Shown here one piece after another: positions 6,320 to 10,157 of a stretch of DNA of 22,748 nucleotides (positions are counted from its first letter, which is position 1; every line of letters begins with the position of its first letter). Location: the IMG/VR virus record IMGVR_UViG_2671180674_000012, positions 1 through 22,748 of that record. One strand, 5' to 3'. Origin of the DNA: a virus. Taxonomy: Duplodnaviria; Heunggongvirae; Uroviricota; Caudoviricetes. Below the pieces are notes generated by a model that made no database searches, was not told where the DNA came from, and saw only the letters and a list, made by a program, of their open reading frames with translations. Both the position numbers and the translations under genes were made by a program.

Positions 6320-6808
6320 TCACTCAGAAGGTGGTGGGGTGCTGGCGTATTTCTCGTAGAAATCGTAAAGTTTCTTGAGTCTCATCTCAAAAGCCAGAAG
6401 CATATTCCTGGCTTCAACTGGCGGAAACTCCCGAAACGTTCGTATCAGTCGCTTTTCATCTTCACTTAACTCAGTAAATTCGCCATTGCTATTGGCACCA
6501 GATCTTTGTGTTACAAATGAATCTTCTGCTGGTTCAATTCCTTTCTCTGTTAGCTGACCGTATTCCAGCCATGCAGGTTCAACTCCCAGAAATTCTGCTA
6601 TTCGTTCGAGTTTTTCGTCGCGGGGTTTAGCTGTACCTAGGGTGTAGCGCCGCGCCATTTCGTATGTGACGCCCGTAGATAAGCTTAAGTCTTTGATGGA
6701 TTTGTTTTTTCTATCCATTTCTGACTTAAGTCTTGTTGCGAATGCGTGATGTTTATGTGCGTTTTCTACCATATGTAGAAGATTAAAGCAGTTGCCTTGA
6801 TTCGTCAT
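6320..6808 (-). CDS. CI-like phage repressor, XRE-family HTH, no S24 peptidase domain
   Basis: HTH signature HAFATRLKSEMDRKNKSIKDLSLSTGVTYEMARRYTLG; divergent from the cro-like gene across an operator-rich gap. Start is ambiguous (ATG 6808 or 6772, or TTG 6829) and there is no SD, so possibly leaderless. Confidence 0.75.
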   Translation of the reverse strand: MTNQGNCFNLLHMVENAHKHHAFATRLKSEMDRKNKSIKDLSLSTGVTYEMARRYTLGTAKPRDEKLERIAEFLGVEPAWLEYGQLTEKGIEPAEDSFVTQRSGANSNGEFTELSEDEKRLIRTFREFPPVEARNMLLAFEMRLKKLYDFYEKYASTPPPSE

Positions 6809-6878
6809 TTCTATTTTGTGTAGTTGCAAATTCTACTTTATGTAGTATTATTCTCTCGTTCTTGAAATGGAGCTGACG
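6809..6878 (+). promoter_or_regulatory. Divergent immunity control region: pR-like promoter with operator
   Basis: TTGCAA (6824-6829), 16-nt spacer, TATTAT (6846-6851), with the imperfect palindrome CTACTTTATGTAG (6834-6846) in the spacer; same half-sites as the pL operator. Confidence 0.5.
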
Positions 6879-7163
6879 ATGAGCACTACATACAAAAACA
6901 TTACAGAAAAGGCAGTTATGGTTATTGGTTCTCCCTCTGCTGTAAGTCGCATGTTTGGTTTCAAATCGCCTCAATCCATTTTTAATTGGATTATCAGGAA
7001 CAGGGTTCCTAGTGAGAGGGTTATTAGGCTTTGTGAGCTTGGGGAATGGATTGTTACTCCGCATGATCTCCGGCCTGATTTACACCCTACTCCAGTTAGT
7101 GGGATTCCAGAAGAAGTTATCAGATCCAAAAAAATAGGGTTGATTCATGAAAATCAAGCATGA
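6879..7163 (+). CDS. Cro-like / YdaS-family HTH protein
   Basis: ATG 6879 with GGAG RBS. Motif SIFNWIIRNRVPSERVIRLCELGEWIVTPHDLRPD resembles YdaS-type Cro proteins (GxxQxVxQWxxxxRVPxER...ELRPD). Confidence 0.6.
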   Translation: MSTTYKNITEKAVMVIGSPSAVSRMFGFKSPQSIFNWIIRNRVPSERVIRLCELGEWIVTPHDLRPDLHPTPVSGIPEEVIRSKKIGLIHENQA

Positions 7164-7572
7164 ACACATCCGTATGGCGATGAATGCCTGGGCGCATCCG
7201 GACGGTGAAAAAGTTCCGGCAGCTGAAATAACCCAGGCTTATTTTGAGTTGGGGCTGACGTTTCCTGAACTGTACGACGACAGCCATCCGGAAGCCCTGG
7301 GCCGTAACACCCAGAAAATTTTCCGCTGGGTGAAGAAAGACACTCCTGATGCGGTTAAAAAAATTCAGGCGTTGTTACCAGCGATCGAAAAAGCAATGCC
7401 GCCTCCGCTGGTGGCCCGAATGCGCAGCCACAGTTCCGCTTATTTTCGGGAGTTGGTAGAGACGAAGGAACGGCTGGTGAAAGATATTGATGATTTCGTT
7501 GCATCAGCGATCGTTCTGTTCGATCAGATGAATCGTGGTGGCCCGGCAGGAAACACTCTGGCTGTGCATTAA
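7147..7572 (+). CDS. YdaT-like protein (CII-position regulator of Rac-type prophages)
   Basis: Begins MKIKHEHI, which I recall as the YdaT N-terminus; overlaps the cro-like gene's end; Rac-like order racR-ydaS-ydaT. Confidence 0.5.
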   Translation: MKIKHEHIRMAMNAWAHPDGEKVPAAEITQAYFELGLTFPELYDDSHPEALGRNTQKIFRWVKKDTPDAVKKIQALLPAIEKAMPPPLVARMRSHSSAYFRELVETKERLVKDIDDFVASAIVLFDQMNRGGPAGNTLAVH

Positions 7573-7585
7573 TTGGGTAATAAAT

Positions 7586-8095
7586 ATGAGTAATGACAAA
7601 AAATTGACACTGAGCGTTTACGAAAACAGTCCGCACATCTGGCGTGGCGGTTTATCTGATGTGGAGCTGGCAGAGTGGTTGATACATAAAGCTAATGCGC
7701 TGCTCTGGCGTTTGTCAGCCAGAGAGCAGCGCAAGGAAACCAGAATAAAGCTGGCTGATGCAGAAGCGTGTGCCGGGCTTATTGAGGATTATACAAATCT
7801 TGGTATTTCTTCAGCAGAGAGTGATCCCATTCAGCCTCTGAGCAGGGAGTCAATCCAGCACGCTGGTTGTATGGCACATCTTGTAACTGCTCGTCAACAT
7901 GAGGTGGGTATTGGATCACTTTCGGTGGGATATTCGCTGATTCCAGAGCTGGTTGAAGCAAGAAAATCAGTTCAGAAAAAGAGAGATGACGCACTTCAAT
8001 TATTGAGAGAGCACTATGGCGCGATACCAGAATGCGAACAGCGTCGATACCCTGAAGGTTATGAATGGATGCAGTCTCTTTTTGAAGTTCGCTAA
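7586..8095 (+). CDS. Hypothetical phage early protein (169 aa)
   Basis: ATG 13 nt after the upstream stop; an alternative GTG at 7535 would overlap the upstream gene. No family recognised. Confidence 0.5.
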   Translation: MSNDKKLTLSVYENSPHIWRGGLSDVELAEWLIHKANALLWRLSAREQRKETRIKLADAEACAGLIEDYTNLGISSAESDPIQPLSRESIQHAGCMAHLVTARQHEVGIGSLSVGYSLIPELVEARKSVQKKRDDALQLLREHYGAIPECEQRRYPEGYEWMQSLFEVR

Positions 8096-8312
8096 TCAAT
8101 ATGTCGAGACGAAGGTATGTTTCGGCGCGCAGCCAGGCTCTGTAATCCGGGAGCATTTCGGGGCTGTTACACCAGCGGTTTGTTGCTGCAACATTTAATA
8201 CATGAGCCTGATAAAGGCTTTTCAAAAAATACATGTCGAACCTCCTCTGGTTCTGTTGATTGGGAACCACAGATTATATCCGGAGGAAGGTTCGGCACCA
8301 GATGAGGTAGCC

Positions 8313-9422
8313 ATGCGTGATTACGCAAAAGTTTCTCCGCGATTCTGGCTGGGAGAAACGGGGAGAGAACTTAGAAAGGCGGGTGCAGAAGCGCAAGTTG
8401 TTGCTTTTTACCTGATGACATCCCCTCACGCAAATATGCTGGGTTTGTATTACCTGCCAGTTTTATACCTTGCTCATGAAACCGGGCTTGGTCTGGAAGG
8501 GGCTTCAAAGGGGCTTAAAAGGGCTGTTGAAGCTGGTTTTTGTAGCTATGACCATGATGCCGAGATGGTCTGGGTCCATGAAATGGCAGCCTGGCAGGTT
8601 GGGGAAACGTTGAAGCCAGGCGATAACCGTTGTGCAGGTGTCAGGAATGAGTATGCATCATTACCTGAAAACGCTTTTCTGTCAGCGTTTTACGACAGAT
8701 ATAAAACGGATTTCCATCTTGATGTGAGGCGGAATAATAGCCGAAATTCGGTAAGGGGCTTTGAAGGGGCTTTTAAGGGGCTTCGAAGCCAAGAACAGGA
8801 GCAGGAGAAAGAACAGGAACAGGACAAAAACACTATGGTTCATGGCGAAAAAAACACCATGAACCAGGCAGGGGATGTTCAGACCGTAAATTCTGGTCAG
8901 CCAGCAGGCACGACACCGGAAGCCGATTCGGCGTATGCGCTGAAAGCCGATTCGGGCGCTGTGCAGCAGGTGATGACCGCAGGGTCGGAGCAATCACACC
9001 AACTGCAGCAGCCTGAAGCCGATTCCGCCATTCAGCGGGAAGCCGATCGGGTAGTCCCGGAAAACGCCGGGCGGCCTGTGGGACGAGTGGATTATCCGGA
9101 TGTGTTCGAACAGGTCTGGCGGGAATACCCGTTGCGTGCCGGGGCAAACCCGAAGAAATCCGCATTCAGTGCCTGGAAGGCCAGATTGCGCGAGGGGGTG
9201 CCACCAGAGACCATGCTGGATGGTGTGAGGCGTTACGCGAGATACCTGGCGGCGACCGGGAAAGCGGGAACGGAATTTGTTCAGCGAGCGACGACGTTTT
9301 TTGGACCGGACCGGAATTTTGAGAACCCCTGGTTGCTCCCGGTAAGCGGCACGAACAACCAGCGTTGCGTGAATCACATTTCTGAACCGGACACCGAAAT
9401 TCCGCCGGGATTCAGTGGGTAA
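8313..9422 (+). CDS. Putative replication initiator (YdaU/O-like) with internal iterons
   Basis: ATG 8313 with GAGGT RBS (the ORF-track start at 8202 lacks one). Immediately precedes the DnaC-like loader; contains two DNA iteron clusters. Confidence 0.6.
   Translation: MRDYAKVSPRFWLGETGRELRKAGAEAQVVAFYLMTSPHANMLGLYYLPVLYLAHETGLGLEGASKGLKRAVEAGFCSYDHDAEMVWVHEMAAWQVGETLKPGDNRCAGVRNEYASLPENAFLSAFYDRYKTDFHLDVRRNNSRNSVRGFEGAFKGLRSQEQEQEKEQEQDKNTMVHGEKNTMNQAGDVQTVNSGQPAGTTPEADSAYALKADSGAVQQVMTAGSEQSHQLQQPEADSAIQREADRVVPENAGRPVGRVDYPDVFEQVWREYPLRAGANPKKSAFSAWKARLREGVPPETMLDGVRRYARYLAATGKAGTEFVQRATTFFGPDRNFENPWLLPVSGTNNQRCVNHISEPDTEIPPGFSG
8496..8785. repeat. Putative replication origin: two clusters of three AAGGGGCTT iterons at 11-bp period
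   Basis: Cores at 8498-8505, 8509-8516, 8520-8525 and at 8753-8761, 8764-8772, 8775-8783. The 11-bp spacing is not a codon multiple, so this is a DNA-level repeat. Purine-rich tract follows the second cluster. Confidence 0.5.
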
Positions 9423-9428
9423 CGGGTT

Positions 9429-10157
9429 ATGAAAAATATTGCGGCAGGTGGTGTTCTTGAGCGTATCCGTAAGCTGGCCCCGCAGCATGTAACCGCGCCG
9501 TACCGGACAGTGGACGAGTGGCGAGAGTGGCAGCTTGCAGAAGGGCGAAAGCGTAGTGAGGAAATTAACCGCCAGAATCGCCAGATCCGGGTGGAGAAAA
9601 TTATGAAGCGTTCCGGTATCCAACTGTTGCACCAGAAGTGTTCGTTTGCGAATTACCAGGTGAAGAACGATGGCCAACGCCACGCGCTGAGCCAGGCAAA
9701 ATCCATCGCGGAAGAAATGATGACCGGATGCACAAATTTCGTGTTCAGCGGTAAGCCGGGTACCGGAAAGAATCATCTGGCAGCAGCCATTGGCAACCAT
9801 CTTCTGGCGAAAGGTCGCAGCGTGATTGTGGTGACGGTGGCGGATGTGATGCTGGCGTTACACGGCAACTACGACAACAAAAACTCGGGCGAAAAATTTT
9901 TGCAGGGGTTGTGTGAAGTTGACCTGCTTGTCCTGGATGAAATTGGTATGCAGCGGGATACGCGTAACGAACAGGTCACACTGAACCAGATAGTCGATCG
10001 CAGAACAGCCTCGATGCACAGCGTCGGGATGCTGACGAACCTGAACCATACGGCAATGAATACGCTGCTTGGCGAGCGCGTGATGGATCGCATGACCATG
10101 AACGGTGGTCGCTGGGTGAATTTTAACTGGGAGAGCTGGCGTTCAAATGTTGGTTAG
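9429..10157 (+). CDS. DnaC-like helicase loader (AAA+ ATPase)
   Basis: Walker A FSGKPGTGKNHLAAAIG and Walker B LLVLDEIG; position after the initiator as in lambdoid replication modules (Rac ydaV-like). Confidence 0.8.
   Translation: MKNIAAGGVLERIRKLAPQHVTAPYRTVDEWREWQLAEGRKRSEEINRQNRQIRVEKIMKRSGIQLLHQKCSFANYQVKNDGQRHALSQAKSIAEEMMTGCTNFVFSGKPGTGKNHLAAAIGNHLLAKGRSVIVVTVADVMLALHGNYDNKNSGEKFLQGLCEVDLLVLDEIGMQRDTRNEQVTLNQIVDRRTASMHSVGMLTNLNHTAMNTLLGERVMDRMTMNGGRWVNFNWESWRSNVG

Follow-up and report, generated by a model that had tools for sequence, protein, structure and literature searches.

Two 11-bp repeat arrays inside a prophage replication initiator gene as a probable intragenic origin

Origins of Gram-positive phages that employ a replisome organiser (SPP1 and phages of the lactococcal Tuc2009 and TP901-1 type) lie inside the organiser gene, as the origin of phage lambda lies inside gene O. 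In case of SPP1, the replisome organiser G38P binds the oriL origin (PMC5615212). Here we describe a 22,748-nt stretch of a Caudoviricetes virus (positions 1 to 22,748 of the IMG/VR record IMGVR_UViG_2671180674_000012; this whole stretch is referred to as the window), a lambdoid or Rac-like prophage of E. coli with a plus-strand gene for a 369-aa replication initiator (8313..9422). The protein comprises an N-terminal domain (N-domain) of predicted winged-helix type, an acidic disordered linker, and a C-terminal module (C-module). Two arrays of the motif AAGGGGCTT with a period of 11 bp are embedded in this coding sequence (CDS). Based on the analogy with lambda ori and O and with SPP1 oriL and G38P, we assign a probability of roughly 0.65 to the reading that the arrays are binding sites of the initiator's N-domain and, together with an adjoining hexamer repeat, constitute the prophage origin inside the initiator gene. 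Such an element would most probably be a new architectural variant of the iteron origin within its own initiator gene and not a categorically new type.

Similar to the lambda ori in gene O, the sites reside in the initiator's own CDS at the boundary between a DNA-binding N-domain and a partner-recruiting C-domain, the units show internal dyad symmetry, and a strand-asymmetric purine-rich tract adjoins them. As in lambda O/P, a helicase-loader gene follows immediately 3', and as in lambdoid modules the N-domain and its iterons act as one specificity module that recombines with different C-modules. In contrast to lambda O, the N-domain does not belong to Phage_rep_O (no Pfam match even at E<=5). 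The iterons of lambda are about 19 bp long and form a single array of at least 4 units of 18-19 bp, whereas the units described here measure 11 bp, are arranged head-to-tail at one helical turn, and are split into two arrays 256 bp apart. Furthermore, an A+T-rich block in lambda is matched here by a hexamer repeat with 42-47% GC, and loader P by a DnaC-type loader. Replisome organiser genes are likewise located directly 5' of loader or helicase genes in the early operon, but the initiator has no match to PF09681 (Phage_rep_org_N) at E<=5 and its motif is different.

Exact copies of AAGGGGCTT are located at 8497, 8508, 8753, 8764, and 8775, all on the plus strand, and no other copy is present in the window; in contrast to these 5 copies, shuffled sequences contained 0.22 on average and 1 at most. 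Tandem Repeats Finder reported a period of 11 for 8497-8523 (2.5 copies) and 8753-8788 (3.3 copies). Array 1 (8496..8533, plus strand) consists of GAAGGGGCTTC, AAAGGGGCTTA, and the degenerate unit AAAGGGCTGTT, whose motif reads AAAGGGCTG and is one G short, and is closed by a terminal GAAGC; it codes for E62-A74. Array 2 (8752..8790, plus strand) contains three exact copies of the motif followed by a closing cGAAGCC, and codes for aa 147-159 within the disordered linker. The original prediction of two clusters about 260 bp apart in the initiator CDS agrees with the 256 bp that separate the initial units of arrays 1 and 2, both arrays lying within 8313-9422, and the purine-rich tract that it placed behind the second cluster was recovered as (GAACAG)n at about 8788-8832. 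Its count of three units per cluster is correct for array 2, but in array 1 only two units are exact and the third is degenerate. Due to the fact that 11 is not divisible by 3, the reading frame changes from one unit to the next, which gives E-G-A, K-G-L, and K-R-A in array 1 and R-G-F, E-G-A, and K-G-L in array 2. A reading of the arrays as peptide repeats was rejected, since the units occupy all three frames.

The AAGGGGCTT arrays are kept by selection acting on the DNA itself across the Proteobacteria. Homologous regions comprised phage loci as well as 78 genome loci with relatives of the N-domain (43-66% identical) from Enterobacterales, Acinetobacter, Burkholderiales, Xanthomonadales, Rhizobiales, and metagenome-assembled genomes. 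In almost all of them the gene contains two exact forward units, at positions +185 and +196, and a further 2-4 units in the region of about +429 to +463. Codon choice was analysed in 74 homologous genes with a G+C content at third codon positions of 0.30-0.93. E62 is encoded by GAA in 64 of 65 cases (background 45%), G63 by GGG in 63 of 66 (23%), A64 by GCT in 55 of 65 (16%), K66 by AAG in 63 of 63 (63%), G67 by GGG in 58 of 68 (23%), and L68 by CTT in 62 of 73 (11%). The spacer codon S65 is free in its third base (TCG 26, TCA 14, TCT 8, TCC 4), and the neighbouring residues G58 and L59 use all their codons. Among the 145 codons of the N-domain, array 1 is the sole island of strong synonymous constraint, with -log10 p of 12-37 for codons 60-68 except for the spacer S65 (4.3); as the homologues share ancestry, these binomial p-values are inflated, and the contrast with the adjacent codons is the robust part of the evidence. 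The original prediction had named synonymous variation that destroys the repeat in homologues as the observation that would speak against it; the corresponding check was carried out, and the repeat was found to persist.

For the initiator protein, AlphaFold2 (72-sequence alignment) yielded a confident fold of residues 4-143 (pLDDT 83) with the topology alpha1-beta1-alpha2-alpha3-beta2-beta3, by which the N-domain is predicted to be a winged helix. From the canonical winged-helix topology, we take helix 60-73 to be the recognition helix, the start of which is predicted to be encoded by array 1. The acidic linker begins at aa 144, with residues 144-165 predicted to be disordered, and the C-module starts at about aa 213 according to its match in the PHROG database. 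A sequence search against the PDB returned nothing above threshold.

In most homologues array 2 is inverted (AAGCCCCTT), whereby the peptide EGAxKGL turns into EAPSKPL; these two peptides are linked solely via the DNA. The array is forward in the window and in some enterobacteria, and homologues carry 2-4 units in either orientation. Among the genome loci, the orientation was '--' in 28 and '---' in 15 cases and mixed within one array in about 12, and in 80 viral contigs the array patterns +++ (35), -- (27), and ++ (17) were observed. In PhiR5_2 and the Shigella phage 75/02 Stx, both with 76%-identical genes, array 1 is conserved and array 2 is inverted as AAGCCCCTTcaGAGCCCCTT. Together with the synonymous-site test, these flips support the earlier claim of a DNA-level signal overlying coding sequence. 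As array 2 occurs forward, inverted, or mixed, a strand-specific RNA element is excluded, and the pattern suits a symmetric protein on a duplex site. The corresponding flip from EGASKGL to EAPSKPL did not occur in the recognition helix in any case; the constant forward orientation of array 1 is presumably due to the prolines (CCC, CCT) that an inverted unit would put inside the helix. In case of array 2, flips are presumably tolerated due to its position in the disordered linker.

The logo of 304 units reads cG-AAGGGGCTT-Cg, i.e., GAAG-SSS-CTTC, a near-palindrome of 4+3+4 positions, and the junction of two units (CTTC followed by GAAG) is likewise palindromic. In the genome loci the spacing equals 11 bp in 66 of 71 steps of array 1 and in 77 of 93 steps of array 2, and in 55 of 67 loci the last unit of array 2 lies 254-278 bp away from the first unit of array 1.

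Outside of this gene the motif is rare. Exact copies reach a density of 6.4 per kb between +150 and +520 versus 0.062 per kb in 434 kb of flanks (77 genome loci), and the 80 viral contigs, which include up to 10 kb of flanking sequence on either side, contain 302 motifs inside arrays and a single one in 1.24 Mb outside. The enrichment over the flanks thus ranges from about 100-fold to more than 1000-fold. No second motif cluster and no other origin-like repeat set was found within 10 kb on either side in the 80 viral contigs. The sole constant companion of the motif is the N-domain, in hosts from the alpha-, beta-, and gamma-proteobacteria. C-terminal parts of the family members are not alignable, some carrying PF09524, and the downstream gene encodes a DnaC/IstB loader, a DnaB helicase, or a Toprim-AAA primase-helicase. 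In the Acinetobacter loci L013, L023, L024, L030, L032, and L042, 2-3 extra units precede the ATG by about 40 bp and overlap with the Shine-Dalgarno sequence (AAGGAGCTT); the window lacks them. Judged by their position, these upstream units could serve as an autoregulatory operator.

The original prediction regarded the split two-cluster layout as unusual, yet two clusters are the norm, being present in about 60 of the 77 genome loci, and the layout recurs in phage Tritos (L003) with an unrelated N-domain. The Tritos initiator has the same C-module (94% identity), but its organiser N-domain, which matches PF09681 below threshold only, shows no detectable profile similarity to that of the window (hhalign probability 0.2%). 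As in the window, two arrays 260 bp apart with a 10-11-bp period are followed by a purine-rich repeat, but the units are GTCACG instead of AAGGGGCTT: four units of array 1 span 2154-2192, five units of array 2 span 2414-2462, and the repeat (ACAGATAAAGAT)x3 at 2461-2495 precedes the shared C-module. Iterons change with the type of N-domain, and the layout of Tritos and of about 60 of the 77 loci indicates a rule for these initiators and not a peculiarity of a single locus. From position 8827 or thereabouts to the end of the gene, the window is 94% identical to thousands of E. coli prophages and phages (Tritos, Evi, vB_EcoS-689R5, and others). Due to this sharp onset of sharing, a recombination joint is placed just past array 2 and the hexamer tract, and the N-domain with its iterons on the one hand and the C-module on the other recombine as separate units. 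Located at this joint of N-domain and C-module, array 2 and the tract take the same position as the lambda ori in O.

The purine-rich hexamer repeat (8788..8832, plus strand; GCCAAG AACAGG AGCAGG AGAAAG AACAGG AACAGG ...) encodes SQEQEQEKEQEQ and has an AT skew of 0.63-0.71 and a GC content of 0.42-0.47, which is less G+C-rich than its surroundings. In typical members of the family, the closing cGAAGCC of array 2 is followed by a 6-bp repeat with the consensus ARCARG, in which C (0.91) and A (0.94) recur at fixed phase, and this tract follows array 2 in essentially all homologues. It is translated as (QE)n in 67 of 76 loci and in other frames in 7 of 76 (L047, L053, L080, L061, L070, L074, and L076), all of which keep the 6-bp CA periodicity; since some of these are metagenome-assembled genomes, sequencing frameshifts may be involved. 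The resulting peptides are rich in Ala, Gly, or Arg in L047, L053, and L080 and in Thr/Val or Asn in L074 and L076, and in case of L061 and L070 they are Val-rich from the assumed start and Ser-rich in the sole frame without an in-tract stop codon. That the CA periodicity is kept across frames argues moderately for an additional role of the tract at the DNA level, and the tract is a candidate for the unwinding element. A binding-site array abutting a repeat with 6-bp period resembles the DnaA-box/DnaA-trio system in layout only, and unlike there, no DnaA box lies within the initiator gene.

Array 1 is missing from a few divergent homologues (43-47% identity), namely L056, L059, L060, and L062 of the Undibacterium group as well as L073, L075, and L078. 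The homologues without array 1 carry another peptide in the recognition helix. At the position of array 2, GAAGGACCTTC palindromes or half-sites were observed in L059, L060, L062, and L073. A (CAAGAG)n tract is found in the Undibacterium members lacking array 1 and a purine-rich hexamer tract also in L075, but not in L073 and L078. In L066, a metagenome-assembled genome of the Burkholderiales, a second, frame-broken initiator copy (1483-1549 and 1770-1803) contains seven perfect 11-bp units in array 1 and one forward plus three inverted units in array 2. This expansion is evidence of either slippage or an assembly artefact.

If the arrays with the hexamer repeat form the origin, each near-palindrome GAAG-SSS-CTTC would be bound by a symmetric dimer of the N-domain, so that a unit could be flipped (GGG to CCC) without loss. 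Abutting units of 11 bp, about one helical turn, would place neighbouring dimers on one face of the DNA and allow cooperative binding. The two arrays, about 255-280 bp apart, would be bridged or wrapped into one nucleoprotein complex comparable to the lambda O-some, this complex would destabilise the adjoining (ARCARG)n tract, and the exchangeable C-module would recruit the helicase via the DnaC-type loader encoded by the neighbouring gene. Several points weigh against this origin. Two peptide patterns served to retrieve the loci, and one of them overlaps E62-G63, which is a mild ascertainment bias at the level of the peptide, not the codon, and to this comes the inflation of the p-values mentioned above. 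The few divergent homologues without array 1 imply that it is not indispensable for all members. With a GC content of 0.42-0.47 in the window, where it is only moderately A+T-rich, and the form (GAGCAG)n in high-GC hosts, the tract is not a classical A+T-rich unwinding element, and its conservation could largely stem from selection for an acidic EQ linker. A DnaA-box scan detected no DnaA boxes in or near the initiator gene.

It is tempting to speculate on a still broader reading, which we consider doubtful: a widespread, unrecognised origin architecture of non-AAA+ winged-helix "organiser" initiators, defined by loop-clamping arrays, a dedicated tract, and helix-coding sites. A DNA loop would be clamped by two phased arrays at a distance of about 24-26 turns, the (ARCARG)n tract would not only code for a linker but act in unwinding or single-strand engagement in the manner of DnaA-trios, and the binding sites would encode the initiator's own recognition helix, such that specificity and site co-evolve.

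As an alternative to an origin, the arrays might be initiator sites with a mainly regulatory role (roadblock autoregulation, titration, or handcuffing), the unwinding site being located elsewhere. The operator-like units upstream of the ATG in Acinetobacter, the dispensability of array 1 in some divergent members, and a flanking tract that is not strongly A+T-rich agree with such a role, but the 80 viral contigs offer no other cluster or origin-like repeats within 10 kb on either side, and array 2 and the hexamer repeat invariably form a continuous element where the modules join, which resembles an origin core more than an operator. We consider a mainly regulatory function unlikely; as the iterons of lambda and of plasmids serve both roles, the two explanations overlap. 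A quite improbable explanation is that another host or phage protein reads the motif for packaging, partition, or nucleoid organisation. It draws on parC of plasmid R1, where 11-bp direct repeats in two clusters are bound cooperatively on the same face by ParR. The direct repeats in two clusters are indeed shared, but parC flanks a promoter that precedes parM/parR, and its binding protein is of the ribbon-helix-helix type, whereas the arrays described here are intragenic and associated with a winged-helix protein encoded beside helicase or loader genes. No par or terminase gene adjoins the initiator gene in the window or the checked loci, the N-domain is the sole constant partner across host classes and neighbouring genes, and a host factor common to Rhodopseudomonas and E. 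coli that is used in this gene alone is unlikely. With regard to partition genes, a gene of the ParB/RepB/Spo0J family lies two genes downstream of the initiator gene in the Klebsiella locus L086.

Two further explanations leave the DNA-binding protein out altogether. A constraint at the mRNA level, by pairing of array 1 with an inverted array 2 or by another structure for translation or stability, could draw on the inverted array 2 of most homologues, which would allow some 20 nt to pair over a distance of about 250 nt. However, arrays of the same orientation cannot pair, and this is the situation in the window, Raoultella, Citrobacter, Proteus, Rahnella, Fraca, and many E. coli relatives, on account of which long-range RNA pairing was rejected; nor would an RNA element tolerate flips, as seen in the mixed orientations within one array. 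Such a constraint is accordingly very improbable. Negligible in probability, finally, is that the repeats are a by-product, be it of a peptide repeat, of functionless slippage-prone DNA, or of chance. Repeat numbers do vary and the frame-broken L066 copy with its seven units shows slippage, but the use of three frames, the fixed synonymous sites beside variable neighbours, the enrichment over the flanks, and the conservation across classes of Proteobacteria are opposed to it.

Should the arrays indeed form an origin, they would provide a testable one for a replication module that lacks a Pfam family and a described ori and that ranges from "Eru4"-type Stx phages of Shigella and E. coli over Klebsiella, Acinetobacter, and Ralstonia phages to proteobacterial prophages. 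The change from EGASKGL to EAPSKPL upon a flip is an unusually clean natural case of DNA-level selection dictating protein sequence. The recurrence of the two-array layout with an N-domain of unrelated type suggests a geometric rule, namely a separation of the arrays by about 255-280 bp, which could guide the prediction of phage origins and the design of orthogonal phage-derived replicons.

A literature search on the motif strings returned unrelated primer sequences only, and neither a description of the motif or origin nor binding, unwinding, or replication data for the family were found in the literature, including that on iterons of replisome organisers, Eru types, and the Rac oriJ, although most subscription journals lay outside this search. 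The Shigella phage 75/02 Stx ("Eru4" type) encodes an N-domain with 78% identity (76% at the DNA level) and has the two arrays, with array 2 inverted; the immunity region of the window is Rac-like (HTH repressor, YdaT), unlike that of 75/02. Eru types are defined by two genes next to cI, and in case of Eru4 the protein encoded by cI's neighbour is of "unknown function" and no origin is described (PMC8951638). A search of plasmid databases gave no replicon evidence for the initiator family. A match to a small "plasmid" (NZ_CP069825.1, the Klebsiella locus L086) was rejected as an autonomous replicon because the record is linear and carries chromosomal and prophage genes; its 32 kb comprise cytosine permease genes as well as part of a Rac-like prophage with the initiator gene, and the plasmid label was probably given to a chromosomal contig by mistake.

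The region 8200-9500, including the initiator CDS, is present to 80% or more in over 500 complete genomes of E. coli. The ATG at 8313 is the start codon in the homologues and also in the closest genome as annotated in RefSeq. Upstream of the initiator gene, an HTH repressor gene (6320-6829, minus strand), a YdaT-family gene (7147-7572), and a phage-associated gene of the ECs1072 family (7779-8234, minus strand) are situated; the latter lies in antisense between the YdaT-like gene and the initiator gene and breaks up the rightward early operon. Directly 3' of the initiator gene follows a gene for a DnaC/IstB-type helicase loader (9429..10157, plus strand; Pfam IstB_IS21 5.5e-18, NCBIfam PRK12377 7.8e-145 and DnaC 1.9e-93), which is presumed to be the initiator's partner, and then a DUF1627 gene. 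This location directly 5' of a DnaC-type loader gene is the position of an initiator, which supports the original prediction in its naming of the gene as a replication initiator. The initiator CDS itself falls into no Pfam or NCBIfam family (Pfam searched up to E<=5) and matches PHROG 1701 ("DnaD-like helicase loader") and, weakly, PHROG 6251 (E 3.6e-4), and its halves match separate PHROGs, phrog_25210 for the N-terminal and phrog_3729 ("replication initiation protein") for the C-terminal half. According to the local gene order and these PHROG matches, the CDS at 8313-9422 holds the place of lambda O.

The last 22 codons of the gene (9357-9422) encode the tail ...EPDTEIPPGFSG, which resembles the tail of DnaT only below threshold (PDB 6aep, 2ru8, and 9zbt; E 0.1-0.4) and may serve as a docking peptide for the helicase or loader. 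The Salmonella homologues P0030 and P0034, which are otherwise different in the C-domain, end in a similar IPxGFxG tail.

Two additional elements are located behind the hexamer tract. At the start of the exchangeable C-module, an inverted repeat with perfect 10-bp arms and an A-rich loop of 11 nt (TGGTTCATGG-N11-CCATGAACCA, 8836..8866, no strand assigned) is a possible single-strand hairpin (dG -9.8 kcal/mol as single-stranded DNA, z -5.0). It is partly conserved in PhiR5_2, POCJ13, and Tritos, with one compensatory change between the window and PhiR5_2, and resembles an intrinsic terminator on the minus strand; a promoter and terminator scan did not rise above shuffled sequences. Further downstream, in the linker of the C-module, four GAAGCCGATTC-like repeats (8919..9049, plus strand) start at 8919, 8943, 9015, and 9039, i.e., with a spacing of 24, 72, and 24 bp, and share 9 of 11 positions with the inverted iteron GAAGCCCCTTC. 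They go with the C-module and not with the N-domain, being present in Tritos and absent from Fraca, and it is uncertain whether they are part of the origin. In PhiR5_2, compensating -1/+1 indels shift the frame of the fourth copy while its DNA sequence is kept.

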